A DNA stretch of 34,982 nucleotides, from the IMG/VR virus record IMGVR_UViG_3300001528_000074, one strand, 5' to 3'. Origin of the DNA: an uncultured virus (IMG/VR IMGVR_UViG_3300001528_000074). Taxonomy: Duplodnaviria > Heunggongvirae > Uroviricota > Caudoviricetes. Below are positions 2,955 to 34,612 of this stretch, one piece after another; the first letter of the stretch is position 1; every line of letters starts with the position of its first letter. The notes beneath the pieces are model-generated. The model saw nothing but the letters and a program-made list of their open reading frames with translations. It was not told the DNA's origin and searched no databases. A program made the position numbers and the translations under genes.

Positions 2955-3575
2955 TTAGTCTGCTGCGTTAACGTGGATGTTAATTGTTGTATCGCCACCT
3001 TTTCGGTCAAGCTGACGGTAATAAGCGTCCGCATAGGCAGAGTTCTTCTCAGAAGTTGTCTCAATCATCATGGACATCTTCTTAAGATTCTCTGTCAATT
3101 CGTCGATCTTAGCCTTCTCCTTAGCATTTTCCTGATTAAGGAATTCTGCCAACTTCTTACCTGAAGAGAAGTACACATTATTAGTATTAGTAGGATCCTT
3201 CATGAGAGCATCTCGCAAAGAGTCCACTGTTACGTCCTTAGTAAACTTATTGTTTGCTATAGGACAACGAACTTCAATACTGTTACCAGTTTCATCTACC
3301 TGGTCCTTATTAATAACCACTTCATATTCATCAGGATTCAATCCTCGTTCAAGTGTTATACCAGTAATATCGATAGCAAGAACCTTATAACGGTTGACAT
3401 TACGTGTTATAAATATCCCATTATTGTGTTCGGCATGTTCTTTCTGCTGATTATAGTCGGTAATTATTACCTCCTTTGCTGCTTTAAAGATTCTTTTACC
3501 AAAAAGTCCACCGAATGCTGCAAGATTTGGACGATTCTCTTCTACTACCTGAATGTTAATTTTAGTGTTATTCAT
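2955..3575 (-). CDS. hypothetical protein with C-terminal coiled coil
   Basis: 206-aa ORF, tightly packed with the downstream gene. Confidence 0.8.
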   Translation of the reverse strand: MNNTKINIQVVEENRPNLAAFGGLFGKRIFKAAKEVIITDYNQQKEHAEHNNGIFITRNVNRYKVLAIDITGITLERGLNPDEYEVVINKDQVDETGNSIEVRCPIANNKFTKDVTVDSLRDALMKDPTNTNNVYFSSGKKLAEFLNQENAKEKAKIDELTENLKKMSMMIETTSEKNSAYADAYYRQLDRKGGDTTINIHVNAAD

Positions 3576-6159: not shown

Positions 6160-7584
6160 CTAGTCTTTTTTTGATTCAGCTTTCTTGGCTTCTGCAGCAG
6201 CCTTGTCAGCCTCTTCTTTACGCTTAATATATTCTACATAAGGTATTTCCTTTACTTCAGTGAGATTCTCCTCACCATATGCAGAATTCTTTTCACCTGG
6301 GTTGCGGAATAGATTAAGAATAATACCACCACGAATCTTCATGTTCTCATATATACCATCATAATGCTTATCGAGAGCACATTCTGGGTAATAGAGTTTA
6401 CGAAGACGACCAAACGCCATATTCATGATGGGTTTAAGGTGTTCGTCCTTAAAGTCGGGGTTGTTATAATTGTCTACTATAGTAAATGAGATGTCATGTA
6501 GTGATTTCATAACCTCCTCATTACGTTTAATCTGATCTTCATGAGCCTTGGCAAGCTCACGATAACCCTTCTTCTTCTGATCAAGTTCTCCGAGAGCAAC
6601 CTTCTCCTTTTCAATATTGTCCATGCAGATGAGCTCTACAAACGCCCTAACTGTATCGGCAATAGATTGATCATCCCAGCAGGCTTTCTTAGTTTCTTTG
6701 TCGGTAAGAGCACCTCGCAGAATAAGGAATGCTGACAATGGAGAATGTTCTCTTTCAACTAGAGACCACATACCTTGTCCAATACCTTTCATGTGAGTGG
6801 TTGGCTTCACATAATAGAAGATATCAGACAACCATTCGTACATAGTACGATCTTCATATTTGTTCATGGCTTCCGTAGAGTTCTCTGCTTGACGGGCAAG
6901 TTCTATACGATAGTCATGCATAAAGTCTACTGTTTGTACAAGAGCATCTTTAATACTCTTGCTGTGCTTCAAACTGGTCACGAGAAGGTACTTCAGAGCC
7001 TCTCTAAGCGCATTTTCATCAAGATGTGCTACCTTGACTGGGTCAAGTTCAATAGAGCCTTCAGAACCCTTCTTTTCGGTTTCGTTTTCAGCTTTAAGTT
7101 CTTTCTTTGTTTCTTCAGATACTTCAACATCTGAAGAGTTTACTGTTACTGTGTCATCTTTTACTTCAAGTTTCTTTATTTCTGGAAGTTCAATTCCCAT
7201 ATCTTTGGCAACATTTACCAGCATTGGATAGACACTTTTACTCATTACTGCACTAAAGAATGAGGTGCCATTTACTGCTTCATCTGCCAAAGCCACAACA
7301 ATACCAGCAGCTGTAATACGATTCATATTGTCTACCACATCTTTACCGAATTTGTCAGATGCATCAGGATCATCGTGGAAGAATCTCGACGCAAGTCCGA
7401 GCAATTCTACTTGATGATTAGCATCAAGTCCACTGTTCTTACGACTTGCGATATTCTTAGGAGTAACGTCTTTAGGAGTTACTTCCTGTATCACTTCTGC
7501 CTGCACCTCCTCTACTATTTCTGTCTTTGGAGGAGTTGTCGTCTTTACTGAATTCTTCTTAGTGTTATTTACTTTCTTAGCCAT
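6160..7584 (-). CDS. hypothetical protein (474 aa, helical)
   Basis: Long ORF with TTATCAAAAATTATG leader; TAG stop followed by a long hairpin (~6092-6132). Confidence 0.85.
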   Translation of the reverse strand: MAKKVNNTKKNSVKTTTPPKTEIVEEVQAEVIQEVTPKDVTPKNIASRKNSGLDANHQVELLGLASRFFHDDPDASDKFGKDVVDNMNRITAAGIVVALADEAVNGTSFFSAVMSKSVYPMLVNVAKDMGIELPEIKKLEVKDDTVTVNSSDVEVSEETKKELKAENETEKKGSEGSIELDPVKVAHLDENALREALKYLLVTSLKHSKSIKDALVQTVDFMHDYRIELARQAENSTEAMNKYEDRTMYEWLSDIFYYVKPTTHMKGIGQGMWSLVEREHSPLSAFLILRGALTDKETKKACWDDQSIADTVRAFVELICMDNIEKEKVALGELDQKKKGYRELAKAHEDQIKRNEEVMKSLHDISFTIVDNYNNPDFKDEHLKPIMNMAFGRLRKLYYPECALDKHYDGIYENMKIRGGIILNLFRNPGEKNSAYGEENLTEVKEIPYVEYIKRKEEADKAAAEAKKAESKKD

Positions 7585-8602: not shown

Positions 8603-8917
8603 TTAAAATGGTAAATCGTCTTCCATTCTCAGGTAGACAGCATTGTGTACATTCGCTGTAAGATTCCCATGAATCTCCCTCTTCTCCTCATCGGTCAAAG
8701 AAGTAAGCTTATTTAACATCCCTGTTGCAATGCGCAACTTTACCATTGTTGTGTAATAAGAGTCTCTTTCGAGATTATTGTCACAAATATTTCTATTTAC
8801 CCACCACAACCATTGGATAAGGCTATGATTTCTCATAACTTTCAACCAGCTATACGGATAAATGGCATGTGATGTATATTCACAATGACTTAATCTATTA
8901 TCTATTCGTCTATCCAT
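8603..8917 (-). CDS. hypothetical protein
   Basis: 104-aa ORF ending DDLPF, packed between its neighbours. Confidence 0.65.
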   Translation of the reverse strand: MDRRIDNRLSHCEYTSHAIYPYSWLKVMRNHSLIQWLWWVNRNICDNNLERDSYYTTMVKLRIATGMLNKLTSLTDEEKREIHGNLTANVHNAVYLRMEDDLPF

Positions 8918-9228
8918 AATCCAATCTGTTTAAGAATGAACTCAGCCAGTTTGTGGTTCTTCCTAGTATAACGTTCTGCAATTTCATTACAGAGATTCTC
9001 GTTATCTGATCCGCAAAATATTGCAACATCTGCTGCATTTTTGATGTAGGGTATGTTCTTACAAAACCATTCATTCCATGATACAACATGACTCCAGAAG
9101 GTGTATTCCTGTTTACCATACTGTAATAGATTGGTTAAGTCTATAGCATCAGCCATATTCTTTTTAGGGTTTATGTAAGAAACTATCTTCTTCTCTTTTT
9201 CCTCTTCGTTTTGTTTCTTCGTACGCAT
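8902..9228 (-). CDS. hypothetical protein
   Basis: Probable start ATG 9228 (MRTKKQ); the track's upstream extension runs through a tRNA. Confidence 0.65.
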   Translation of the reverse strand: MRTKKQNEEEKEKKIVSYINPKKNMADAIDLTNLLQYGKQEYTFWSHVVSWNEWFCKNIPYIKNAADVAIFCGSDNENLCNEIAERYTRKNHKLAEFILKQIGLWIDE

Positions 9229-9386
9229 AACGTTGCTATTCAGAGGTCTAATATGTACGTCATATACACGTTCGATGAATTTGTTTCTACATTTACACCA
9301 TCTTAATGTAATATCCCATGTAGACGGGATACGGTGTGAAATCATGTTTCTATATCCTGTCATAACTATTTTGTATTTTGTGGCAA

Positions 9387-9463
9387 TGGAGTGGTAGTGG
9401 GACTCGAACCCACAGTTGTACTGATTACGAATCAGCCGTGTCTTCCATTTCCACCATACCACC
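9387..9463 (-). tRNA. tRNA-Thr (anticodon CGT)
   Basis: GGTGGTA/TACCACT acceptor, GTG..CAC D-arm, GCTGA-TTCGTAA-TCAGT anticodon arm, GTGGG-TTCGAGT-CCCAC T-arm. Confidence 0.8.
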
Positions 9464-9464
9464 C

Positions 9465-9619
9465 GTCACCTCTCGTTGGTGCTACGTGACTTAAATGCGA
9501 TTACTCAAGCAACCACTTACGCTACGCAAGTGTAGTCAACAATGTTATTTACATTGCCAGTTAATTTAAAAATGAGTCTTGTACTTATCTCTGTATATCG
9601 TCAAATCCAATATTCCCCC
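9465..9619 (-). ncRNA. ssrA: tmRNA, coding piece of a permuted two-piece gene
   Basis: 5' end GGGGGAATATTGGATTTGAC; resume context TAACT-GGC; tag ORF 9558-9517 GNVNNIVDYTCVA-stop, with the stop in a hairpin. Confidence 0.8.
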
Positions 9620-9863
9620 TAATAAAAACTACACTATCTTCACAGACCGTGTAGCATGTCTAACCTAAATAAAAAACAAATAATCCAATGACAGATCTTA
9701 TTTTCACAAACTTAATCTGTAATACATAACAAATGCCTAACTAATTGACTTTATAAACAAAATAATATATGTAGGGTGGAGTGGAGTCTCGGCTATAAAA
9801 TTGCTTTTATAGACAAAAAAGAAAATTACGAGTACTGATTAGTTATGTGAGATTGTCCACTCC

Positions 9864-9925
9864 TAGTGGAGGAAGAGGGATTCGAACCCTCGTCCGATAT
9901 ACTCGCATCATACTCAAACGACTCT
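9864..9925 (-). ncRNA. ssrA: tmRNA, acceptor piece of a permuted two-piece gene
   Basis: GTATATC-GGAC-GAGGG-TTCGAAT-CCCTC-TTCCTCC-A-CTA pairs with GGGGGAA to give a G3:U70 Ala determinant; GTATATC pairs with GATATAC of the coding piece. The 5' boundary is approximate. Confidence 0.8.
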
Positions 9926-10351
9926 TAGAAACTATAAGAGCGATCAAACTCTTATAGCATGAGTGTAGAATATGCACAATTGATCAGATTGTACACACTC
10001 TACACCAGATATTTTGTATAGTGACTAAGTTGGTCTAGCCTAATCTTAATATATACTAAAGAACTTTGATGTTGGCGTGTCATCATACGAATCGGCTCAT
10101 GGCTCTCACGCTTAACATGATTCATGCACATTTAACTCCTGTGTTGGAGGTCTCGTCCATACTGGCTCAAGGCTCTTGTATTTCGTGTCAATTCACGATA
10201 TTTCCCTCACGCAGAACTCTTGTCCGGGTCGCTAACCTAATACCGTCTGCCGATCTTGGTACTTACACACGGTTCAAGACTCTAGTGCTGGACTTAAAAT
10301 TTGTATTTGCACCCTTCTTGATATTGTCCTTGATTGGACTAACGGTACGAT

Positions 10352-15591: not shown

Positions 15592-16065
15592 CTAATCGTT
15601 CACAATACGGTAACGGTTGTCGTTGGCGGCGAGGTGTCTCTGAATTTGCGCACGCTTTTTCTGCTTGAGAACCTCAGGCGGCAAACAGCCGCCTAAGGGC
15701 AACAAGTCAGCACGAACCCAGTCTCCGTTCGCTGTGAAATACTCAAAATGTTGACCCTTTTCGCAGAGTTCGTGTGTATCAAAATCCACAAGGTTGACGA
15801 GTTCTAAGTACTCGTTGACTTCAGTAGGTAAGTTTTCCGTCTTTCCTATTGCAGCCTTGAACACTTCCAAATCTTCGTTCATACTACTTTCTGAATCTTC
15901 AGAGAGGGTAACCTTGTATATTTTGGACGTGTACTCCTTGGCTGCGTATTTGTTTGCAGCCAAAGAAATATGCAAGGTAATATGGTACTTAGTTATACCG
16001 TTTACCGCCTTACCGTCTCTTGAACCAACCACGTTTACGATTACTTTTTTCATTTTCATTTTCAT
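15592..16065 (-). CDS. hypothetical protein
   Basis: 157-aa ORF with its own terminator; several in-frame ATGs at the start. Confidence 0.75.
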   Translation of the reverse strand: MKMKMKKVIVNVVGSRDGKAVNGITKYHITLHISLAANKYAAKEYTSKIYKVTLSEDSESSMNEDLEVFKAAIGKTENLPTEVNEYLELVNLVDFDTHELCEKGQHFEYFTANGDWVRADLLPLGGCLPPEVLKQKKRAQIQRHLAANDNRYRIVND

Positions 16066-20453: not shown

Positions 20454-20515
20454 GCCGGTACTACGGGGTATACACTGTAGCAGGAGTAACGGGAGTTCGA
20501 GTCTCTCTACCGGCG
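20454..20515 (+). ncRNA. aberrant tRNA-like RNA
   Basis: GCCGGTA/TACCGGC acceptor and GGGAG-TTCGAGT-CTCTC T-arm, but only one internal hairpin. Confidence 0.55.
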
Positions 20516-20538
20516 CCTCATTTTCATACTTGTAATAA

Positions 20539-20602
20539 TCCCCTGAGCAACCTGACAAGTTTGAGTCCACATGCGTTGTAGGTTTGAGTCCTACCAGGGG
20601 AA
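20539..20602 (+). ncRNA. aberrant tRNA-like RNA
   Basis: TCCCCTG/CAGGGGA acceptor, GTAGG-TTTGAGT-CCTAC T-arm, no recognisable D or anticodon arm. Confidence 0.5.
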
Positions 20603-20760
20603 CATATAGTCAGAGTAGTGTGCATATCTCTGAATCGTAACAGCCGAAGGCCTCTGAATATGCTTAAAGTTCGGTTCTACATCGTAGGGTAGACCAGTTA
20701 GCGCACTGGTGATATAAGCGCACATTGCCCATTTGTGTAACAGCTAGCACACAAGGCTCT

Positions 20761-21741
20761 TTTATCCAATGAATAATTGAATATATATGCAAAATCAGAT
20801 ATATAAACTTACAGATGAACAATTTGTAGAGTTACTCAAAAATAGTTCAAATATAGCAGAAGTTTTATTTAAGTTAGGATATTCTGTAAAAGGAAATTCT
20901 TGGGGGTATTCTCAAGTGAAAAGGAGAATGACGGATTTAAATTTAGATTATTCCGTCTTTAAAGGAAAAAGTGTTGTATATGACAATATACGGATACAAA
21001 AAATAAATCCAAATGACATACTTAAAGAGAATTGTAAACACTCAAGAACAGTATTAAGAAGGTATATAATTAAACATAATTTAATCCCGTACAAATGTGC
21101 AATATGTGGATGTACAGAATGGCAAGGGCGTACATTAAGTCTTGAATTAGATCATATAAACGGAATCAACAATGACAATCGATTGGAAAATTTAAGATTT
21201 TTATGTCCTAATTGTCACAGTCAAACTTCTACATATGGAAGTAGGAATCAGCAACTTAACAATTCTGAATATGAAATAACCGACGAGCTTAGAAAACTTG
21301 TTGAAGATAAATATGACGAAGTTAAGAGTGCGAAACGCGTTTCAGCCATACTCGGTATACGTAGAAACGTTGTAACAAGAATTGTGAATGAATCCGGTCA
21401 AAAACACTCTAATCAAAAATATGTCATTCGTTACGATAAAGATTGGAAGGAAGTTGCAAGATATGGATCTTTAGTAGAAGCTGCTAAAGATCTGATTAGA
21501 AAAGAAGAAGTTCGTACAAGGCGAGTTAAAACATGCACTAGGACAATTATGTATAACAAAGATAACTTCTGGCTGAACAGTCATTGGAAAATATTGGATG
21601 GTAGTGGGATAATAGATAATCCACTATTAGAATCTCCTCTAATTGACTCGGAAGACACTGTTGACGAGGCGCAAGCGAAAGCAGCGTGACAGACTGAACG
21701 AGGAGACTGATCTTAGGATTGGATGCAACAGTCGATAAACG
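20761..21741 (+). mobile_element. group I intron with homing endonuclease ORF
   Basis: 5' exon ends in U and the intron ends in G; P3 TCTCCTC (21633)/GAGGAGA (21700); P7 GACTG (21692)/CAGTC (21729); ATCCAAT/ATTGGAT pairing encloses most of the ORF. Confidence 0.85.
20787..21689 (+). CDS. intron-encoded HNH homing endonuclease with a C-terminal NUMOD1-like DNA-binding region
   Basis: CAICG...LELDHINGINNDNRLENLRFLCPNCHSQT; VIRYDKD...YGSLVEAAK. Confidence 0.9.
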   Translation: MQNQIYKLTDEQFVELLKNSSNIAEVLFKLGYSVKGNSWGYSQVKRRMTDLNLDYSVFKGKSVVYDNIRIQKINPNDILKENCKHSRTVLRRYIIKHNLIPYKCAICGCTEWQGRTLSLELDHINGINNDNRLENLRFLCPNCHSQTSTYGSRNQQLNNSEYEITDELRKLVEDKYDEVKSAKRVSAILGIRRNVVTRIVNESGQKHSNQKYVIRYDKDWKEVARYGSLVEAAKDLIRKEEVRTRRVKTCTRTIMYNKDNFWLNSHWKILDGSGIIDNPLLESPLIDSEDTVDEAQAKAA

Positions 21742-21808
21742 AACCCTTGGGGAGTGGGGGCAGCACCCACATGGGCTACTAATTACTTTTTCATTTTCAT
21801 TTTATAAT

Positions 21809-22324
21809 ATGCAGTTAAACATTAAGAAACTTTCAGACAAAGCAGTATTACCAGTAAAGGCGCATGCATCAGATGCAGGTCTTGATCTTACTGCTACTTC
21901 TATTACTACTACAGTTAATGAATGTGGTCAGTTACTTCTTACATATCATACAGATATTGCAGTAGAGATTCCTGAGGGATATGTAGGTTTGATATTCCCA
22001 AGATCTTCTATCTACAAGAAGTCTTTGATACAGTCAAACTGTGTAGGTGTTATTGACAGTGGTTATCGTGGTGAGCTTATGGTAGTATTCCGTAACACTA
22101 CAGATGTAATACCTGCTGTTTACAAAGAAGGTGAACGATTCGCTCAATTGGTAATTGTACCAAATCCTCAGATCGAGGTTGTTGAAGCTGAAGAGCTCAG
22201 CGAATCAGACAGAAACGAAGGAGGTTTTGGTTCTACTGGTGCTGAAGCTAAGGAGGAACAACCTGTTGAACAGAAGGTTGAGACACCTAAGAAGAACAAG
22301 AAGAACAAGAAAGCTGCAAAATAA
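21809..22324 (+). CDS. dut: dUTPase (trimeric)
   Basis: AGLDL, PRSS, GVIDSGYRGE, RFAQL, RNEGGFGSTG motifs; start ATG 21809. Confidence 0.95.
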   Translation: MQLNIKKLSDKAVLPVKAHASDAGLDLTATSITTTVNECGQLLLTYHTDIAVEIPEGYVGLIFPRSSIYKKSLIQSNCVGVIDSGYRGELMVVFRNTTDVIPAVYKEGERFAQLVIVPNPQIEVVEAEELSESDRNEGGFGSTGAEAKEEQPVEQKVETPKKNKKNKKAAK

Positions 22325-22380: not shown

Positions 22381-25300
22381 ATGACAAACAATTGCACATG
22401 TGATCCTAGGAATGTTACAAGAACGACGCTTGAAAGCCACATTGGGAATACCACTGTGCATGTCACGTCAGAGGATCATACAAAAATAAATAAAGTACCA
22501 GAGTTAGAATCCTCAGTCTCTGGTATTGCATCTAGAGTATCTGCATTGGAAACGGCTATAACAGACCCTGTAGATCTTAGTGGCTATGTTACGAACAAAG
22601 ACTTGAAGGCACTAGATTATGTTACTAAAGCGTCTGTTAGCACTATAGTGGCTGCAGATATTGATTCTAAACTGGATGACTATTATACTAAAAGTCAAAC
22701 TGACAATGAAATCAGCGAAGCGATTTCTAATATAGACGTAGAATCTTCTTATCCTGAAATAACTGTTAGTACTAACAATAATAGCAGGTTTGTATCTATC
22801 GATGGTTCTGTGTCTGGTACGAAAAGTAAACCTGTTGTTAATATAAATATTAGTGACAAAGGTTCTGCGATATTGGTGAACGAAGTATCATATGTAAACA
22901 TTTACACTACTACAGATACTATCAACGAACCTACCATTGACAGAAAGAACACGAACCCAGGGTCTAACTGGAGTCAGTCTATAGACAAAGATGGCGTATA
23001 CCTTTGGAGTTCTAGAGGTATGAAAGATGTAAATGGCAAACGTATTACATTTGCAGACGGAGCTTACTGGACAGATCCACAGTTCTGCGGAGCTGTAAAT
23101 GATACTACATCAGATACAGGTGTTGATACAGATATATTTAATTATATATACTGGCTTACAGCTTCAGAAACAGGCGGTACTACTAAACCTGCATTCTCTG
23201 TAGAAGATGCTAAGACTGCATTTGATAAAAACCAATCTATCACTGATAAATCTGGCACTACAGTAAGAATGTGGAACGATCATCCTTCTGGAGTTACAAG
23301 TACTTTGCAATACGAGTATTGTTCATTTGCTAAGTATGATTATTCTACAGGTAAGTGGGGAGAGTATTCAATCCCATTTATATTCTCACATTACGGTATA
23401 GACGGTAGAGATGGTGACGGTGTGGAATATGTATATAAATTGTCACAATTAGAATCAACTCCTGTAATCCAATTCGATAATACGAGTCCTACGTATCAAG
23501 AAGACGATTATATCCCAGATGGATGGAATGACGATCCTCAATCCATGTATGATCCATACTTGTATCAATACTGCTCAGTACGTAAGAAGAACAATGGCGT
23601 ATGGGGAGATTTCTCAACACCTGTATTGTGGTCTGTGTATAAGAAACCTGATGATCCAGTTGATACGGAATCTACTTTAAGTTTATATAAAGGTGGTGCA
23701 AAAAATGCATCTATGATTACAGAGGACGAACGTAAGAGTAACGAGATACCAGAAGGATGGATTACTACATTTCCAGAAGTCGGAAAAGATACGTATGTGT
23801 ACACGATAGTTGCGAGAACTATAAACGGTAAAGTATCATTAAACGACGACTCGTATTACTGGTCTATTCCTATTAGAATAACTAGTGCGGATGGCGAAAA
23901 GGGAGAACCAGGAACAAGTGCTACAGGTTCGGATGGATCTGACATAGATTTCGTATACTGCAGAACTACTAACAATACAAGACCTACTACTCCTACATTT
24001 ACGGTAGACCGTATAAACAAAGAAGGATCTATAACAGAAGGAGGTTATACATGGACAGATAATCCTCGTGGAGTTACACAAGATATTATGCATGAGTGGA
24101 TTTCTGTAAACACAAAACCCGCTGGTATTAATACTTCATGGGCAGGATATACAACTCCTGTGTTATGGTCTAAATACGGCGAACGTGGTACAGACGGAGA
24201 TACTATAGAATATATATACAAACGTACATCTACAGATACTGCTCCGGATACCCCAGTAGCTCCTATAAAAGATTCTAAACTTGACGACAATTTTCCAGCA
24301 GACTGGACGGATAATCCTAGCGGCGTAAATCTTGAAAAGCCTTACGAATGGGTATCGTTACGTAAGAAGGATGGATTAAGCGGAGAATGGGGTGTATATA
24401 CTGACCCTAAGTTGTGGTCTAAATACGGTAAGGATGGTAAAGATGGTAAAGATGGCACATCTGCCCAAGGGTATTCATTAGACTGCGACAATCCTCATGT
24501 AATTGTAGATGACGATACTATAACATAGTTTGGTACCGCAGCTAACGCTACTTATACATTAACTGACACTACAAATGTTAGTGGATTGTATAAGTTTGAA
24601 GTTGTGGTAGATTCATCTTTATCAGGTGTTACTTGTAAGAATACCAATAGCGAATATAGTAGTGCAAAGACGACAACTCTCGTGTATACAGCTACTGAAA
24701 AAATACCTGTTGGAGATTATGTTACTGTAGTTACAGTAAAAAAGAAAGATGAATCTAGCGGTACGGAAACCACTATAGCTACATAGAAACAGCATATTGT
24801 CGTAAAAGATTTCAGTTTGGGAGATGCTTACAAGCTTAATCAGCAAACATACACTTTATATGCTACTTACGATGGCAAACTAAAGGATACTACAACGATA
24901 AAAGCTAGTTACACAAAGATGACAAATAACGGTTCTTCTTTGAGCGATTGTAAGTATAGGACAGCTGATGACAATAAGATATATTTCTTGCTATACCCAG
25001 AGTCCAGCGATATTGCTTTATCTACAGATACTATTGCTGAAGGAACATCTTTATCTAACTATTATGTAATCAAATTGTATCTTGTTACAGATTCTGGTAT
25101 CGATATAGTCGATGAAGGTATAATAGGCGTTTCAAAAGACGGCGAGCAAGGCGCCACTGGCGATAAGGGCGATAATGCCGTTTATCTAAAAGCTACCCCA
25201 GACACGCTTGCTTTTGCTGCAGATAATAACGGAATGCATTTGAATGACTCTAGTTCTCAAACGGTTGATTTGGTATTATACAACGGAGGTACTCCCATAA

Positions 25301-26598
25301 AGTACACCAATTATACATTAGAATATAGAACTGCTGATCATCAAACATGGGAGTCTGATTATGAGAAATGCAACAATGGCGATATAACAATAGATGACGC
25401 ATTAGAATCATCTGATGATATAACTACAAGTATTACTTTATCCATAGACAGTTCAAATTGGCCTAATGATAATGCGTGGTCTGAGTATAGGGCGACATAC
25501 AACGGTAATAAATATGTTGCTAGAGTGAACTGGATAGGACATCGTATGGGCGAACCTGGAAAAAGCGGTCTACCAGGAACGAATGGAAAAAACGGAGCTC
25601 AGATTGTCTATAATATAAGAAAGTTCTCAGACTGTGTAACAGATGCTAAATTTAAAGACGGTACGCAAGATGAAGTTCCGTGTGTATTAGATGTAGTAAT
25701 AGATGATTCTGGTAATTATTATAAATGTATAAAAGCTTACACTCTTATCGATAAGTCTACGCAAGGACCTACTAATACTACATATTGGGAGAAATTTGAA
25801 ACATTTACTAACATAGCAACAGATCTTGTATTAGCCAAAAAGGCGTATATACAGAACTTATTGTTAAACTATGCGACTGCAGTAAACCGCACAACAAATA
25901 CTACTACCATCAGTATAGACGGCGATACAGGTATACTTACTGCCAATGGTCTACAAGCAAGAAATGCTACAGTAAGTGGATCAATAGAAGCTAATACCAT
26001 CGGTTATTCTATAAATACGCCACAAGCTGTAACATATAAACAGCCTACAGAGGACAATGCCACATGGATTCCTGCAACATTGCCTAACGGTTCTGGTACA
26101 CAATGTGCAGCACAAGTATTAGCTTGCAATTCATCTGTATATGTAATGCCACAAGTATTGATATCATCGGAGCCAGATGTAGATGATGTATGGGAAGCAT
26201 GGAGTGGCAATTGTGTAACTTATGTAATACTTCCTCCTACAAAAGTAGGAAAGATTGCGTTGGATATATATTTCAGAAATGAGATAACCGACTGGGATGG
26301 ATACAACACAGATACTGTATACTATCTTGCTGTAATGAACCCTACAATATCTAAATCATATATAGAGGATGGTGCGTATGCTAAATCAGTAATATCTAAT
26401 CTTACATCGTATTACCCGTCTTTAGTAGATTTACAATCTGCTGGTAGCACTCGCAGAGTAACCACAAAGAATTATATAATTCTTACAGAGAAATATAATA
26501 ATGGAGATATTGTAACGTGTGACAGACCGTCTCATATAAAACTCATGTCTGATGGTACAAATTGGTATATTGTACAAGTTGACGAATTTGATAAATAA
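22381..26598 (+). CDS. large tail fibre/receptor-binding-like protein (1405 aa with TAG readthrough)
   Basis: Three track ORFs lie in one frame, separated only by TAG at 24526 and 24784; repeated W.D.P.GV...YE/W...P.LWS.YG modules and collagen-like G-x-x runs. Confidence 0.75.
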
Positions 26599-27116
26599 TG
26601 TTTGATATAAAAGGCGATCAGATAATGCTAAGTACAGAAGACTTAGCAATACCTCCTTTCAAAGACCATTATAATAAGTCTACAGATAAATCTAAAGCGC
26701 TTAAAGAGATAGAGTATGTAGTATGGTTATACAAATGGAATACACCATATGAGGCATACCCTGAGAAAGAGCGATCTAAGAGAGTTGCTTTAGATGTATT
26801 TAAGGATAAAGATTACCCGATAACTGAGGAGATTAAGGAGCTCGGCAAGAGATTTGTCGAGTTCCAGGAAACTCCAGGTACAAGACTTCTATCAGCTTCT
26901 AGAGTTGCAGCAGAAGGTCTTACTGAAGCTTTAAATACATACTCCTCAGATACTATGGATATAGATGTAGCTATTAAGATTACACGTATTCTTAAAGATG
27001 TAGGTAATATAGTGAAGTCTTTGGATATGACAATGAAACAAGCGAAAGCTGAACAAATGGAAACAGGTAAGATTAAAGGCGGTGGACAGATCGGTCTTTA
27101 TGAAAAACCTAGGTAA
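26598..27116 (+). CDS. hypothetical protein immediately upstream of TerL (possible small terminase subunit)
   Basis: 172-aa helical ORF; function inferred from position only. Confidence 0.6.
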   Translation: MFDIKGDQIMLSTEDLAIPPFKDHYNKSTDKSKALKEIEYVVWLYKWNTPYEAYPEKERSKRVALDVFKDKDYPITEEIKELGKRFVEFQETPGTRLLSASRVAAEGLTEALNTYSSDTMDIDVAIKITRILKDVGNIVKSLDMTMKQAKAEQMETGKIKGGGQIGLYEKPR

Positions 27117-27122
27117 TAAGTT

Positions 27123-30100
27123 ATGGTAGACTTTAATAAAAGAATTAAAAATTCTGACAAATTCAGATAGTCAGCAATCTTTTATCAAAAGCATGGTTGC
27201 TACACTCTTGCTCCGAGAGGCACTACCGATTATATATAGTTTTGGGAGCAAGAGACGAATAGATGCTTAAATGGTTATGTAGCACCTGATGGTGATGAAA
27301 TAACTGGTTATCATTATTTCTACTTAAACTATAGTCCTATTATGAAATTGGATGAAGTAGAGTATACTGATAAACATGGTAATAAGAGAAAGCGAAGAGA
27401 GCGTATATTAGGTTTTCCTAGGTTCTACGATTATGATTACTATTACTTTAATGCAATAGAAGAAGCAGAGACTCAAGGAAAACATATGGCTGTATTAAAA
27501 GCTAGACAGAAAGGATATTCGTTTAAAGGAGCTTCAATGCTTGTACGTAATTACGAGCTTATACCAGGATCTAAAAGTTTTGCTGTTGCATCTGAGCAGA
27601 AGTATCTAATAGGCGATGGTCTTCTTACTAAAGCTTGGTAGATAATGGATTTCATAGATCAGAATACAGAATGGTCCAAGTAGAGACTTACTAGTACTCG
27701 TATGGAAAGAGTATCTGGTTTTAAGGTTACTGACGAGTTTGGTAAGCAGACAGAAGACGGTTACTTATCTAGTATTACAGGTATTACTCTTAAGAATGAT
27801 CCAGAACGATTGAGAGGTACTCGTGGTAAATTAGTACTGTTTGAAGAAGGTGGTAAGTTTCCTAATCTAGAAACAGCATGGCGTGTAGAACAGCCTGCTG
27901 TAGAAACAGATGATGGTGTAGCATTCGGACTTCTTATTGCATTTGGCACAGGTGGTACAGTTGGTGGTTCGTTCGACGGTCTAAAGAACCTATTTTATCA
28001 GCCAGATGCTTTTAATGTACTAAGTTTTCCTAACATATGGGACGATAATGCAGGAGAGTTGAAATGTGGTTTCTTTGTACCTTCTTGGGCTAATATGGAA
28101 TCATTAGACGAGAACGGTAAACAAAGATTTATGGATGAAGACGGCAACTCTTACAGAGAGAAAGCTTTAGAAGAATTGATACATTAGCGTAATGTTATTA
28201 AAAATGGTGGCGCATCACAGACTTCTATAGATAGATTTGTATCAGAGAGACCGTTAAAACCTTAGGAAGCTGTACTCGAATTAGGTAAGAATATATTCCC
28301 CAGAAAGCTGTTGATGGATCAACTTACAAGGATTCGTACTAATAAGAAATTATAGAGTATGAAACATATAGTTGATTTAAGTTGGGGACCTAATGGAACT
28401 GTAGAAGCTCGTGAGAAGAAGAGTGGTGATATTACTACGTATCATCTAAGAAAAGATGATAAACCTGAAGGAAGTGTTGTTATATGGGAGTATCCTATGA
28501 GTGATCCTCCATTTGGGTTGTATATAGGTGGATGCTTAATACCTGGGGAAAAGGTGTGTACACAACACGGTTTAGTAAATGTCGAAGATGTTACTCTTAA
28601 TGACAAACTTATTAATAAGGATGGTAAATTTGTAGAGATAAAAAACTTACAAAGATACGAAAAGGAGAATGAGCCTATTTTTGAAATCAAACCCTATGGT
28701 TCTTTTAGAACAACAACATTTACAGGAGAACATCCTATATGGGTACACGATAAAGGTTTTGTAAAAGCGAAAGATTTAAAGGAAGGTGACTGTTTGGAGA
28801 TTCCGAATTTGTATCGAAATCTTGATATGAAATTTGACGACGAACGATCATTGAAACTTTATTATTTTTACGGTCTTTGGGTCGGAGACGGATTTTGTAA
28901 CAAAAACGGAAAGTCTTGTGACATATACCTTTCTATAGGAAAAGACGAAGAAGAATTTGCATAGTTTTATGATAATTTAGTGGCAGATCTGTTCGATAGA
29001 AAATGTATACATGTACGCAAAGAGAATGAATAGACAAGACGCTTTACAAATAAAAAACTGTTTAAAGAATTACAATCCACATTTGGGAAAAATGCATACA
29101 CTAAAAGAATTCCTGAGTTTATAAAAAAAGCCCCTTATAATTATAAAAGAGCTTTTTTACAAGGATATCTAGATACTGATGGGTCTGTATTTAAAGATAA
29201 CAGTAAGATTCGTACAAATTTTACGAGTGTAAACCTTGAACTTCTTGAAGATATACAAGACATGTTATTTGGTATGAATATTGCAAATAACATTGTCATA
29301 CATCAAAAAGAATGTACGAACAAACAAGGTATTCATTCCAAGCAGTCATATAGAATAAACGTAAGTAGATCAGACCAACACTAGTTGAAATTCGCTCCGA
29401 TATTTAAAAGTAGAAAGATAAAACTTTTAGAACAGTCGTCGATCACATCTACTTCTAGAATGGGTATTACTTTTAACAACGACCGAATTCTATTAAAAGT
29501 AGAATCCATAAACAAATCTTCTTATACAGGAGTTGTGTATAATTTTGAATGTGATACACATACATATATGTGTAGAAATATACTTACACATAATTGTGAC
29601 CCGTTAAATGTCGGCGGGGTATAATCGGGTAAAAACGGTAAACATCTAGAACAGACAATACCGTGCTAATCTTACAGATTGCGAAAGGCTGTAAGACAGT
29701 GTAACGCATAGGAGGTGAATAAATATAATCCTCCCACGAGTGCCTGACTACCAATCAAGGAGATAATATATGCTGAACTACATAGGGATATGTAGAAGTT
29801 AAGATAAAAAGCTTAGCGATAACACAATTGACGACCATGATGAATCGTTCACTAACTCATTGGGATCTACATTTATATTTAAGCGTGTCAGAGCTGGAGA
29901 AGCTTGGCAAGATGTAATTGTAGCAGAGTATACAGGAAGACCTGCTACAGCTGAAGAGTATTATGAGAATGTAAGAAAACTATTGTTGTTCTACAACGCT
30001 AGATTACTCTTCGAGAATGAGCGTAAAGGAATTTACCCTTATTTCACTAATAAACACTGTGACTATCTGTTGGCGGACCAACCAGATAAGATCATATCGG

Positions 30101-30471
30101 AAGTGTTTAAAGATAGTAAAGTGCAGCGTAGAAAAGGCTGTCACATGACTAAACAAATACGTGCTTACGGGGAAGGTTTGATACTCGAATATTTAATGGA
30201 AGAGTATGAACCAGGACATCTTAATCTAGAACGAATCTATAGTGAACCACTTATAGAAGAGTTAATAGAGAACGATGGTGTAAGAAACGTAGATAGAGTC
30301 ATTGCCTTATGTATGGTAATGATATATAGAGAAGAGCTGTACTAGGTTAAAGTATCTGCTTCTAAAGAAAGTAATAAATAGGCTGAACTCTTTGACATGC
30401 CGTTGTTTGGTAATGATTACTGGAATGACGAGCCTTAGTCGGACGAAACTATGCCTACATTTTCATTTTGA
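27123..30471 (+). CDS. terL: terminase large subunit (TAG-recoded; contains an intein and a group I intron)
   Basis: ATG 27123, Walker A-like KARQKGYS, Walker B LVLFEEGG; nuclease motif GGCDPYDHD is reconstituted after removing the intein and intron; 13 in-frame TAGs; TGA stop at 30471. Confidence 0.9.
28533..29594 (+). mobile_element. intein with LAGLIDADG homing endonuclease (354 aa)
   Basis: Begins CLIPGEKV, block B TGEHPI, LAGLIDADG-like YGLWVGDG and LQGYLDTDGS, ends VYNFEC...ILTHN followed by Cys. Confidence 0.92.
29605..29830 (+). mobile_element. ORF-less group I intron (226 nt)
   Basis: Splits Tyr codon T|AC; P1 CCCGT/GCGGG with a U:G pair at the splice site; P3 TCGGGTA/TGCCTGA; P7 GCATA/TATGC; terminal G; removal restores the frame. 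Confidence 0.88.
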
Positions 30472-30473
30472 TT

Positions 30474-32954
30474 ATGGTAGAAGATAATTTATACAATTCA
30501 CGGTTTCCGCAACAAAAGTTACCTCTCTCAAAGAAAACCGAGAAGTGGCAACATGATTGCGTAAACTATATTATAGGCGAAGGTAATATTGTCTCAGGGG
30601 GCTAGACTCATACTAAGTTTGGAGAGTTGTAGACCTATTATAACTTATACAATAGTATCTTTGACGAAAAAGACTTTAAGAAGATTACTAATCCTTTTAA
30701 AGTTAAAGATGGATTTCCTGCTACTCCTTAGGACTTCAATATCATAAGACCTAAGATAGACATACTTATAGGTGAAGAGACTAAGAGGCCTCTTAATTTT
30801 AGAGTAGTAAGAACATCACAAGAAGCTGTATCAGACCTACAGAATACACAGAAAGATCTTTTGATTAATTATATGTATTCTGCAATGATGGCCAAACTCG
30901 GCCCTGAAGAAGCTGAACAGTTTCAGCAAGGACTACAGGATGGTTCTATAATGCCTCCTGAGGATATAGCTAAGTATATGGATAAAGAGTATAAGGATGT
31001 AGTGGAGAATACTGCATATCATACTCTTGTATACTTGAGAGAGAAACTTAAGATGGATAATGAGTTCATAAAAGGTTGGAAGGATGCTCTTATAGCAGGT
31101 CAGGAGATCTACTATGTAGGTGTACTTAACGCAGAACCTTATATGGAACGTGTTAATCCATTATACTTCTCATTTGATAAAAGTCCAGATCTTGAGTTTA
31201 TAGAAGATGGTTCTTGGTGTTGTCGTAGAATGAGACTTCCTATTACAGAAGTATATGATAGATACTATGACAAACTCACAGAGAAAGACCTTAAGAAACT
31301 TGAAGAGATGATGAATGCTGTACCATCTAATAATCTCGGAGAACATAATCCTGTAGATGATTTTAGAGGTATATAGCTTCATATATATGACAATCCCATA
31401 TTTGACGAAAAGAGTCAACACTGTGTTAATGTATGGCATTGTTGTTGGAAATCATTCAAGAAGATCTACTATGTAACTACACAAGACGAACAAGGCCAGT
31501 TACAAACAGATATAGTAGATGAAACATTCCAACCATTTGGAGATGAAGTATCTATTGAACAAGATTGGATAATAGAAGTATGGGAAGGTTATAGATGTGG
31601 TAATGATCTATATTTTGGTATACAACCAGTAGAGTACCAACATGTATCTATAGATAATCCTAACTCACAGAAACTTCCTTATTGTGGTGCTGTGTATAGT
31701 AATACAAATAGTAAACCTAGAAGTCTTGTAAGTATTCTTAAACCATTACAATATATGTATATTGTATTGTGGTATAGACTAGAGCTTGCAATTGCACGAG
31801 ACAAAGGTAAGGTGGTTAATATGGATATCACACAAATACCTAAGTCTATGGGCATTACTCCTGAGAGATGGATGCATTACTTGTCTTCAGTAGGTGTCAA
31901 CTTCATAAACCCGTATGATCAGAGTTGGGATATACCTGGTAGAGAAGGTGGTAAACCTGCACAGTTCAATCAGATTACATCACTCGATCTTACAATGTCT
32001 AACGTAATAGCTGAGTACATACAGTTAATGGATAAGATAGAACAATTAGCTGGTACTATATCAGGTATTACATCACAGCGTGAAGGTCAAGTATCTACAT
32101 CAGAAATGGTAGGTAATGTAGAGAGATCTGTTGTGCAATCTTCACATATTACAGAACCTTTATTCTGGGTACACAATCAGTGTAAGAGAAGAGTGATGAA
32201 TATGCTTCTTAACACAGCTAAAGGTGCTTGGGAGGAGACTGGTAAACAGAAGTTATCTTACGTATTTGATAATGGGGAGCGTGCTTTCTTAGATATAGAT
32301 AAGAAGTTCTACTTTGAAGATATGGATGTATTTGTAAGTGATGCTTCTAAAGATATGGAGAACATACAGAAACTGCAACAGCTTATACAACCAGCTATGC
32401 AGAATGGCGCATCTCTATTAGAAGCTGCTGAGATACTTACAAATGATAACTTTAATATCCTTAAACAGAAACTTAAGGACATGCAGACCAGACAAGAGCA
32501 ATTACAGCAGCAGCAACAACAGGCTGAAGCTCAGAATCAGCAACAGTTACAGCAAATGCAGAATGAGGCTAAACAGCAAGAGCTTATGCTTAAAGAAGCT
32601 GAGATGGATCTTGAGAGATATAAAATAGATCAAGATAACGCTACAAGAATAGCAGTTGCTGAGATTAGTGCTTATAGAGGTACTGAAGAGAAAGATGCTG
32701 ATAATAACGGTATACCAGATCCTATAGAAATAGGTAAGCAAGCTATTGAACAACAGAAGATAGATCGTGAAACTTACACTAAGAGATACGAAGCTAAACA
32801 AAAAGCTGAGATAGAGAATCAGAAGATTCAACTCGAACGTGAGAAGATGAAACATGAATCTGCATTACAGAAACAAAAGGATGATGCTGCTTATAAGCGT
32901 GAAGAACTTAAAGCTAAAACAGCGTTGAAGAATAAAGTAGTAGGAGAAAAATAA
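30474..32954 (+). CDS. portal protein (826 aa with TAG readthrough)
   Basis: Single frame from ATG 30474 with TAG at 30603, 30630, 30729 and 31374; follows TerL; FNIIRPKIDILIGEE motif and Q-rich coiled-coil C-terminus typical of crAss-like portals. Confidence 0.85.
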
Positions 32955-33840
32955 TGATACTTTCATATAGACCACAAGATATGGTACAAGATGGACGTCG
33001 TAGTTATATTAGACGTGAGGACGGTTCTTTGTACAGACTGTCAAAGAAAGAAATGAAGAGAATGGCTGCACAACAAGCAGCTCAGCAACAGGCACTTGAA
33101 GAAGAATACGAAGGAATAGCTTCTCAATATAATCAAACTAATCTCGGTGCTGCAGAATACGGCATCAAAACTGGTCGTATTGCCCCCCCCCCAATGTTCC
33201 GGTAGAAGTTGCAGCAGGTATGTCACAATACGACGATCCATATTTAAGAGTGTAGGATCAGATACAACGAAATTATAATGCACAGTCTTATTACAATGAT
33301 CGCCTGAGCGAAAATCCGTACCAAGATTCATATTTGGACGGTTATGATTATAGTGATTTACACAACGTATTAAACAATGTGAATGCACAAGGTTTTGTAG
33401 ACACAAATAATCAACCTCGTGCTGTATATGCGAGAAGTGTTCAAATTAGAAAACCTAAAGGAACTACTAACATAACTGTTGCCAGAACACCTGCGACATC
33501 TCAAACATCGCAGCAGTATACAAATAATAGCCGACAAACAAGGTATCGTCCGGATCTATATTATTCTCCGCTATTATATCGTGATGCAAATCATGCTCTG
33601 CCAAGATACTTAGTAGAAAATAATATTAAAGGTATGGCAAACTATGTTCGTATTAATTCAATTTATGGAAACACAAAAGCTCCTGATAGAGGATGGATTA
33701 TGAAGAAAGACGGTACGATGTATAATAGATTTCATCCAAAACGTGATAGTTCAGATAAACGTAGAAAGATGAGCGAAAGAACCGCTAGTAGAGAGAGAGA
33801 TGGCGTGCTGCTTAGACTGCTAAAAAAATTAATTCATTAA
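32954..33840 (+). CDS. hypothetical protein interrupted by a frameshift in a C10 tract
   Basis: One extra C at 33183-33192 joins ORF 32954 to ORF 33334-33840 through an open frame containing one TAG. Confidence 0.55.
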
Positions 33841-33841
33841 A

Positions 33842-34612
33842 ATGGTAAAGAAATTAACATAGTCTGTTCGTTCTAGAGTACATAACCACATAGCTAAATG
33901 GGAGGGCTCGGACTTTGCAGGTTAGAACAAGAAATTTAGAGGAGATGCTGTTGGTGCTAAACGTAAAGAGCTTGTAAAAAGTTATCCACGTGTAACAGAA
34001 TTACCTCAAGAAGAACAAGATGCCATATTGTCTACATATTACAATATGAGTCCTACAGGTTTTGATAAGAACTTCGGTAACGCTATGCAGAACCACTTAA
34101 ATAATAGAACTCTAGGTTCTTTTGATAAGTTGTATAATAAACTAGCCAACCGTCATACACTTGCTCCTAAAGAGTACAGAAAAGGTATTAAACGTAGAGC
34201 AGCTGCTGATGTAGAATTAGCACAGCCTGCTAGAGGTAGATATATAGATGTTAATAAAGCTCCTATAGAGAAGGATATATACTATCGAAAATGGCGTAGT
34301 TCACTACCAAAGAACTTACAACAAGAAACTCCTACGTACAATTTAAGAGGTGCTTATGAAGCTGGTGTGCAACCAGAGTTGTCAGATGACGGCTTTTATC
34401 ATCTACCTACTAGAAATCCTGAAACAGGCGAGTATTTTAAATCTGCTGTACATCCTACGGTATTGAAAGGTTTGATGGAGGATATGAAACTTGGCTATAC
34501 TCCTACTATGATAAATGGTCACCTAGGTACAGAAAAGGATCCTTTTATAGAAAAGTTTGAAAGATAGATTAATATGCCTAAGTTTAGGTTCGGTAAGATG
34601 TGTAGAATATGA
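33842..34612 (+). CDS. protein with a divergent GH24 lysozyme-like N-terminal domain (256 aa with TAG readthrough)
   Basis: ATG 33842, three in-frame TAGs, TGA stop; IAKWEG, LPQEEQDAILSTYYN, KGIKRR resemble phage lysozyme motifs. Confidence 0.55.

Follow-up and report, generated by a model that had tools for sequence, protein, structure and literature searches.

A putative amber suppressor tRNA gene of a crAss-like phage, split within its anticodon by a mobile group I intron

How does a phage that reads the amber codon TAG as an amino acid obtain the tRNA that does the reading, when no suppressor gene can be found in its DNA? Several recoded crAss-like phages have been described without a detectable suppressor, and in the available parts of these sources the missing tRNAs are ascribed to host suppressors or to very divergent tRNAs, with no mention of a suppressor intron (Yutin 2021, PMC7886860; Zeta crAss, PMC12386605; Crassvirales preprint, 10.64898/2026.08.21.746148). 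The same question is raised by a 34,982-nucleotide (nt) stretch of an uncultured virus (IMG/VR record IMGVR_UViG_3300001528_000074; hereafter the window), a piece of a crAss-like gut phage genome whose fragmented plus-strand open reading frames (ORFs) fuse into long ORFs once TAG is read as a residue. Our results lead us to propose that the window very probably does encode an amber suppressor of a phage with TAG-to-glutamine (Gln) recoding, as a gene split between U35 and A36 of its CUA anticodon by a mobile group I intron that carries an HNH endonuclease gene. The parts of this locus are:

20726..20760, plus strand: 5′ exon, the 5′ half of the tRNA, ending in CTCT; acceptor 20726-32, D arm 20735-50, 5′ strand of the anticodon stem 20752-56, then the loop bases CUCU, the final two of which are C34 and U35
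20761..21741, plus strand: group I intron of 981 nt that separates anticodon positions 35 and 36
20787..21689, plus strand: HNH homing-endonuclease ORF, 300 amino acids (aa), no in-frame TAG, TGA stop at 21687-89
21742..21778, plus strand: 3′ exon, beginning with A36, A37 and C38; 3′ strand of the anticodon stem 21745-49, variable region GGGA, T arm with the loop GGCAGCA, 3′ strand of the acceptor and discriminator A21778; CCA is not encoded

Joined in silico, the exons give a 72-nt RNA whose unconstrained minimum-free-energy structure is a cloverleaf with the loop CUCUAAC and the anticodon CUA at positions 34-36. The acceptor brings 20726-32 together with 21771-77 over seven stem positions, one of them a U1×U72 mismatch; the D stem has 4 base pairs (bp; GTGT/GCAC) and the D-loop reads AACAGCTA; the anticodon stem has 5 bp (CAAGG/CCTTG) and closes a 7-nt loop to which the 3′ exon supplies A36; and a 4-nt variable region leads to a T stem of 5 bp (GTGGG/CCCAC). 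The joined exons therefore have the 7/4/5/5-bp stems and the 7-nt anticodon loop of a tRNA. A preliminary description of this DNA had placed a 981-nt insert at exactly this point, splitting the anticodon as CU|A, and its coordinates proved exact.

The limits of the insert agree with the ends of a blastn match to PV686213 (window 20764-21746) and with exact empty-site alleles of relatives. Searches of phage records by blastn found the same element of about 980 nt in PV686213 (Bohxovirus, Suoliviridae) and in MT835539, a search with the HNH protein led to 16 IMG/VR loci, and a 3′-junction pattern returned 29 loci, 16 of which were already known. Altogether the same intron occupies the same CU|A site in 31 further phage loci, within at least a dozen tRNA backbones. 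In a set of 19 loci collected without using the junctions (the window and 18 others), tRNA halves flank the element in every case, the 5′ exon always ends in CTCT, the 3′ exon starts with AAC in 18 loci and with AAA in one, and a G stands before it in 18. The annotation of PV686213 lists the HNH ORF as a hypothetical protein and does not include the split tRNA.

The joined exons of these relatives also behave as tRNAs. After joining in silico, ARAGORN calls a tRNA whose anticodon is CTA for 11 of the 19 loci and for 19 of the 29, detecting relatives with canonical loops. Its misses among the 29 are eight tRNA bodies with the T-loop GGCAGCA and a D-loop without GG, as in the window (hereafter type B), L294, with an odd body, and L296, whose 5′ splice site was not placed by the pattern script; in the 19-locus joining the 5′ site of L008 was misplaced. 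The anticodon stem is fully paired (5/5) in 20 of 22 distinct tRNAs, with three to six pair types at its first three positions, and the four different type B anticodon stems are all 5/5 paired. Since the two strands of this stem lie about 1 kb apart in occupied genes, their covariation points to selection on the joined RNA. In six tRNAs whose variable loop has 5 nt, our cloverleaf parser set the T arm in a wrong register. ARAGORN called five of these; the sixth is L294 (IMG/VR, 21.7 kb), an occupied allele in which the D-loop has 11 nt and the T arm is non-canonical in a different way.

The insert itself has the core of a group I ribozyme. Its elements are:

20766..20781, plus strand: small hairpin after the 5′ splice site, in the expanded P1 loop, drawn by eye and tentative
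21594..21598, plus strand: proposed guide sequence, GGA (21596-98) pairing with exon UCU as P1 and UU (21594-95) serving P10
21602..21626, plus strand: P2 hairpin, 8 pairs, 4 of them compensatory, 100% of cells paired
21633-39 with 21700-06, plus strand: P3, 5′ strand inside the ORF; in alignment A1 both partners vary in each of the 7 pairs
21647-50 / 21665-68, plus strand: P4, inside the ORF
21654-56 / 21660-62, plus strand: P5, inside the ORF
21669-72 / 21684-87, plus strand: P6, inside the ORF
21675-76 / 21681-82, plus strand: P6a, inside the ORF
C21690, bulged A21691 and 21692-96 with 21729-34, plus strand: P7, 100% paired in 19 of 19 loci
21707-22, plus strand: P8 hairpin, followed by J8/7 and then the P7 3′ strand
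21741, plus strand: terminal G (omega-G), a G in 18 of 19 loci

The helices follow one another in the order P3, P4, P5, P6, P7, P3′, P8, P7′, which is the P3/P7 pseudoknot of group I introns. We threaded the P2-P8 core by hand, taking the register from the Rfam Intron_gpI alignment of a related intron, L002, to which that model aligns end to end and in the same register, weakly (13.6 bits, E 0.31) and below the 50-bit gathering score of RF00028, so that the threshold of the curated model is not reached. Covariation bears the structure out. In alignment A1, made of 12 tRNA introns and seven distant introns, 98.7% of 598 cells pair, against 36-49% with slid partners, both partners change in 19 of 32 pairs, and none of 500 shuffles reaches the observed values. 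In alignment A2, made of all 19 tRNA introns, 99.5% of cells pair, against 31-52% with slid partners, and 13 of 39 pairs are compensatory, including the four in P2. The P7 pair beyond the bulge is C-G in 11 loci, A-U in six and G-C in two, and the next pair, G-C, is invariant in all 19; a bulged P7 nucleotide beside a conserved G-C pair is the architecture of the guanosine-binding site. On this structure we file the insert as a group I intron, the class that the preliminary description had given it.

Only one candidate guide presents itself, and we infer the P1 and P10 pairings from its position. The proposed P1 would place a U·G pair at the splice site, in keeping with the U that ends the 5′ exon in all 19 loci, and UU at 21594-95 would pair with the two bases that open the 3′ exon in a P10 of 2-3 bp. 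In the distant introns L103 and L033 a P1 guide of 4 bp can be made out by eye at the corresponding position, immediately 5′ of P2, and the tRNA-Ile intron of Azoarcus has a 3-bp exon pairing. One compensatory change falls in the small hairpin at 20766..20781, in L017 and L018. A long-range pairing of ATCCAA (20764-69) with TTGGAT was discarded; it is poorly kept in L017 and L018 and competes with the proposed guide. A second GACTG (21704-08) was also considered as P7 and is ruled out by the L002 register and by the covariation, which assign it to P3′/P8.

Seven distant introns in other viral contigs (L033, L067, L101, L103, L106, L116 and L133) have a core that matches that of the window's intron in nearly every motif, and P5 and P8 covary fully. 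They emerged from a core-motif scan that otherwise returned mostly chance GC-rich matches, the full core being present in these seven loci only. Six of them (all except L116) were scanned with Rfam and have no match at E up to 0.01. RF00028 covers this group I sequence family poorly.

The HNH ORF begins 27 nt into the intron, in the expanded P1 loop. It matches phrog_10822 (E 4.8e-45) and six further PHROG families at E up to 1e-5, five of which are named HNH endonuclease. Its coding sequence includes the proposed guide, P2, P3 on its 5′ side and the P4-P6 helices, the final P6 pair being overlapped by the TGA stop, so the earlier reading of a TAG-free ORF that runs at its 3′ end into the ribozyme core is confirmed for the window. 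This overlap is not universal; the ORF of L002 ends where P2 starts. The ORF is intact (298-304 aa) and free of TAG in all 29 related loci, including loci from a genome with about 2% TAG codons in its late ORFs, and stops at TGA in 25 of them and at TAA in four. Free of TAG codons, the endonuclease can be translated in the absence of the suppressor. Searching CUA tRNAs for a form of the intron that lacks the ORF yielded 21 matches, each of them due to chance.

The preliminary description had proposed looking for alleles without the intron, and these turned out to be common. A junction-motif scan of viral contigs found at least 112 intron-free CUA tRNA loci. Among the matches listed, all intron-free CUA tRNA genes have canonical T-loops; of 31 parsed alleles with the intron, seven are matched exactly over 70 nt by such a gene, and three more differ from one by 1-4 bases. 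Exact empty counterparts fix the insertion limits at CTCT|AAC with no ambiguity and imply recent gain or loss of the intron. On canonical backbones the empty alleles outnumber the occupied ones. A FastTree phylogeny of the introns, read without support values, interleaves the tRNA backbones, with the commonest canonical backbone in three places and type B in three, and suggests repeated homing. This pattern of occupied and empty sites is the behavior expected of a homing element. Type B follows a different pattern: it is occupied in eight of the 29 intron loci in viral contigs and in 25 loci, the genuine ones among 36 pattern matches, in metagenome contigs, a collection that overlaps the first, and no empty type B allele was found in either.

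The coding content downstream of the split gene shows what a suppressor is needed for. The relevant features are:

21809-22324: dUTPase, PHROG match
22381..34612, plus strand: block that needs TAG as a sense codon, comprising a 1405-aa ORF, TerL, portal and three smaller ORFs
22381-26598, plus strand: 1405-aa ORF, 2 in-frame TAG
27123-29624, plus strand: first piece of TerL, 10 in-frame TAG, PHROG match
29860-30471, plus strand: second piece of TerL, 3 in-frame TAG, PHROG match
30468-32954, plus strand: portal, 4 in-frame TAG, PHROG match

With one, one and three TAG in the three smaller plus-strand ORFs, the packaging and virion genes of this block require readthrough of TAG, as had been claimed for the virion genes. 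The split tRNA gene stands at the head of the TAG-containing block, just ahead of the dUTPase and packaging genes; scans for sigma-70 promoters and terminators did not rise above chance. Of 120 database homologues, some of which may come pre-translated with TAG as Gln, 89, 120, 120 and 118 have Gln at the four TAG positions of the portal gene, and these residues fit the published TAG=Gln code. The tRNA itself gives an indirect hint. Position 1-72 is U×U, U·G or U-A in 20 of the 22 distinct tRNAs, and a weak first acceptor pair favors glutaminyl-tRNA synthetase. The suppressor is most likely charged with Gln.

Is the split gene the only source of suppression? The Rfam and ARAGORN tRNA calls in five 100%-complete relatives include no CUA anticodon, and the split gene appears to be the only credible CUA tRNA in them. 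One of the five, the 96.5-kb G003, has a type B split gene whose 3′ exon is nearly identical to that of the window, and it is heavily TAG-recoded (one ORF of 5280 aa holds 105 in-frame TAG); ARAGORN finds only a tRNA-Leu(TAA) in it. The record nearest to the window, G001 (62% complete), is without the split-tRNA region. In another relative, G004, a tRNA-like gene with a 6-nt anticodon loop (L162 1586-1658; ‘tRNA-???’ with anticodon ‘ca’ in ARAGORN) is flanked by tRNA-Met on one side and on the other, some 150 nt downstream, by the split suppressor of that relative.

The preliminary description had also stated that tRNA finders would miss such a gene, and they do: neither ARAGORN nor Rfam reports it in the window. 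ARAGORN is likewise negative at all 120 alternative exon joins around the proposed sites. Its rejection of the joined exons can be traced to the T-loop GGCAGCA and the D-loop without GG, so that the intron and the non-canonical elbow together make the gene invisible. The type B T arm (window 21752-21773, preceded by GGA) is identical over 22 nt in intact tRNA-like genes with the anticodon UUC (Glu) in two unrelated viral contigs, L027 and L028, at about 1230-1330 of each locus, and ARAGORN misses both. From this common T arm the type B body may descend from a Glu-type phage tRNA. A 17-mer of the T arm gave 78 matches in bacterial and archaeal genomes, two with the extended motif and none tRNA-like. 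The GGCAGCA arm resembles a tRNA elbow that is peculiar to phages and is not accepted by tRNA finders, and its presence in Glu(UUC)-like genes suggests that further phage tRNAs have been missed.

We envision a scenario in which a precursor is transcribed from the plus strand and the ribozyme core, from guide sequence through P2-P8 to terminal G, folds and removes the intron by two guanosine-initiated transesterifications. Joining of the exons would then create the anticodon CUA and a complete tRNA, which, charged most likely with Gln, would decode TAG wherever it falls in frame in TerL, portal and other late genes. Itself free of TAG, the endonuclease presumably cuts the intron-free suppressor genes of co-infecting relatives and thereby spreads the intron. 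The anatomy, the covariation of ribozyme and tRNA stems, the occupied and empty alleles, the need for TAG readthrough and Gln at TAG sites are shown by the sequences; splicing itself, like the charging identity and homing, is something we infer. Since the anticodon is completed by splicing only, suppression would depend on splicing if this is the sole suppressor. Most likely, then, a mobile homing intron must splice before the suppressor exists, which would place a ribozyme step upstream of a switch in the genetic code.

Several observations weigh against this interpretation. The T-loop GGCAGCA does not conform to TTCRANY and the D-loop lacks GG, the acceptor carries the U1×U72 mismatch, ARAGORN rejects the joined exons even at a lowered threshold (-ps50), and Rfam has no match at 20500-22000 even at E up to 10. 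No Rfam group I match occurs in the window at E up to 10, a scan with the 3′ core alone gave no usable match, and a group I scan of eight related loci was negative at E up to 0.01. The proposed P1 is only 3 bp and invariant (TTGGATG in 19 of 19), so no covariation can be read from it, and L008 has one G·G mismatch in P3. L001 (PV686213) has an A instead of the terminal G (3464-3472), which could come from faulty sequencing, from an intron that is dead or from a 3′ site of an unusual kind. The window is part of a genome and a second CUA tRNA may lie beyond it, and relaxed ARAGORN settings on G003 yield 47 calls, two of which carry the anticodon cta and fall within long ORFs (minus strand, 26401-26475; plus strand, 47477-47541); we take them as probable false positives. 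The missing support from Rfam and ARAGORN, the odd T-loop, the terminal A of L001 and the partial coverage of the genome could all be accommodated if the tRNA were inactivated or the intron did not splice, with TAG decoded by a host suppressor or an undetected phage one. We consider this highly improbable, because pairing in the ribozyme helices and in the tRNA stems alike is maintained by compensatory changes across the occupied alleles, the four type B anticodon stems included, and because relatives with complete and heavily recoded genomes offer no second credible CUA tRNA.

If the gene is functional, the intron could be more than tolerated. The preliminary description held that splicing gates the genetic code, with translation of the endonuclease possibly delaying ribozyme folding. 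The dependence part of that claim stands, provided that the split gene is the sole suppressor, as the five complete relatives suggest; the idea of an evolved gate fares poorly, given the many backbones and the abundance of empty loci. On the latter idea, translation of the HNH ORF through the core would slow splicing and delay the suppressor, thereby timing the late TAG genes. The position of the gene at the head of the TAG-containing block, an ORF that covers the guide and P2-P6, and a type B body that is never found empty are all as such a timer would have them. However, canonical backbones are more often empty than occupied and some empty alleles are identical to joined exons, the interleaved intron tree suggests repeated homing, with the reservation on support values given above, and the L002 ORF stops before P2. 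We consider an evolved timer quite improbable, and less likely overall than a tolerated selfish intron, and favor a model in which the intron is primarily a selfish passenger. For the type B lineage we entertain, as an unlikely reading, that the intron is no longer dispensable and that competition between splicing and translation of the ORF through the guide and P2-P6 sets the time of the switch from the standard code to TAG=Gln. If true, this would be a ribozyme-gated change of the genetic code, hidden twice, behind an intron and behind a tRNA elbow that finders turn down.

Group I introns in anticodon loops are known from cyanobacterial and plastid tRNA-Leu(UAA), Azoarcus tRNA-Ile and Agrobacterium tRNA-Arg, and the cyanobacterial tRNA-fMet intron has its own homing endonuclease aimed at the anticodon region. 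The intron described here resembles the bacterial and plastid examples in being of the self-splicing type, in its place in the anticodon loop and in a very short proposed exon-guide pairing, and resembles the bacterial tRNA-fMet intron in carrying a homing endonuclease. Unlike them, it resides in a phage, in a stop-codon suppressor on which late genes depend, and at site 35/36; its P1 loop houses a 300-aa HNH ORF that extends over the proposed guide and P2-P6; and its core belongs to a family shared with seven other introns of phage contigs, and RF00028 does not recognize it. Group I introns with HNH endonucleases also occur in protein-coding genes of phages, as with I-HmuI of the Bacillus phage SPO1 and I-TevIII of T4, and translation is reported to affect the splicing of T4 introns. 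These share with the window's intron its mobility, its HNH ORF and a possible conflict between translation and ribozyme folding; they differ in that here the interrupted gene is untranslated, no ribosome arrives from an upstream exon, and the restored RNA would change the genetic code.

In the available part of a 2014 review, all phage introns known by then are in protein-coding genes (Hausner 2014, PMC3984707), a generalization that the locus described here would contradict for group I introns. The intron-free tRNA(CUA) genes of TAG-recoded crAss-like phages, as far as the accessible parts of the sources describe them, have the same loop CTCTAAC, belong to the same kind of phage and serve the same role (PMC7886860; 10.1101/2021.08.26.457843). 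Some intron-free tRNA(CUA) genes are identical to the joined exons of the window's occupied relatives, whereas the gene in the window is split by 981 nt and has non-canonical T- and D-loops. Lak megaphages, TAG-recoded phages of gut Bacteroidota, are reported to have short unexplained introns in tRNA-Tyr and tRNA-Thr, predicted with eukaryote settings (Devoto 2019, PMC6784885), an observation repeated in a 2026 survey of jumbo phages (PMC13037316); the portions of these sources at hand leave those introns unclassified and say nothing of a group I identity, of an endonuclease in them or of a place in a suppressor. In Agate phages the available text describes a group I intron endonuclease with an in-frame TGA, which is not a tRNA intron (Borges 2021, 10.1101/2021.08.26.457843). 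A search of full-text literature, with subscription papers and supplements outside its reach and some sources available in part, turned up no description of a phage suppressor tRNA that holds a group I intron. An intron-split suppressor offers a testable answer for part of the ‘missing’ suppressors, including that of the annotated Suoliviridae genome PV686213, and annotation pipelines need a suppressor search that is aware of introns.

Other features of the window are less directly connected with the suppressor. The sole tRNA that ARAGORN and Rfam find in it is:

9388-9463, minus strand: tRNA-Thr(CGT)

An ARAGORN ‘tmRNA*’ call at 9426-9956 overlaps this gene and is probably spurious. In the TerL ORF at 27123-29624, TerL residues 24-470 are followed by an endonuclease-like insert (phrog_4645, residues 568-768), and the C-terminal part of TerL resumes in the separate ORF at 29860-30471 after a 235-nt gap; the interruption is an intein or a second intron. 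The block of genes on the minus strand is free of in-frame TAG, and several of its genes use TAG as terminator:

590-1588, 2398-2952, 6160-7584, 8902-9462 and 15592-16065, minus strand: ORFs terminated by TAG

With TAG as a sense codon these ORFs gain 2 to 33 codons before the next stop, so that late suppression would lengthen these early proteins.

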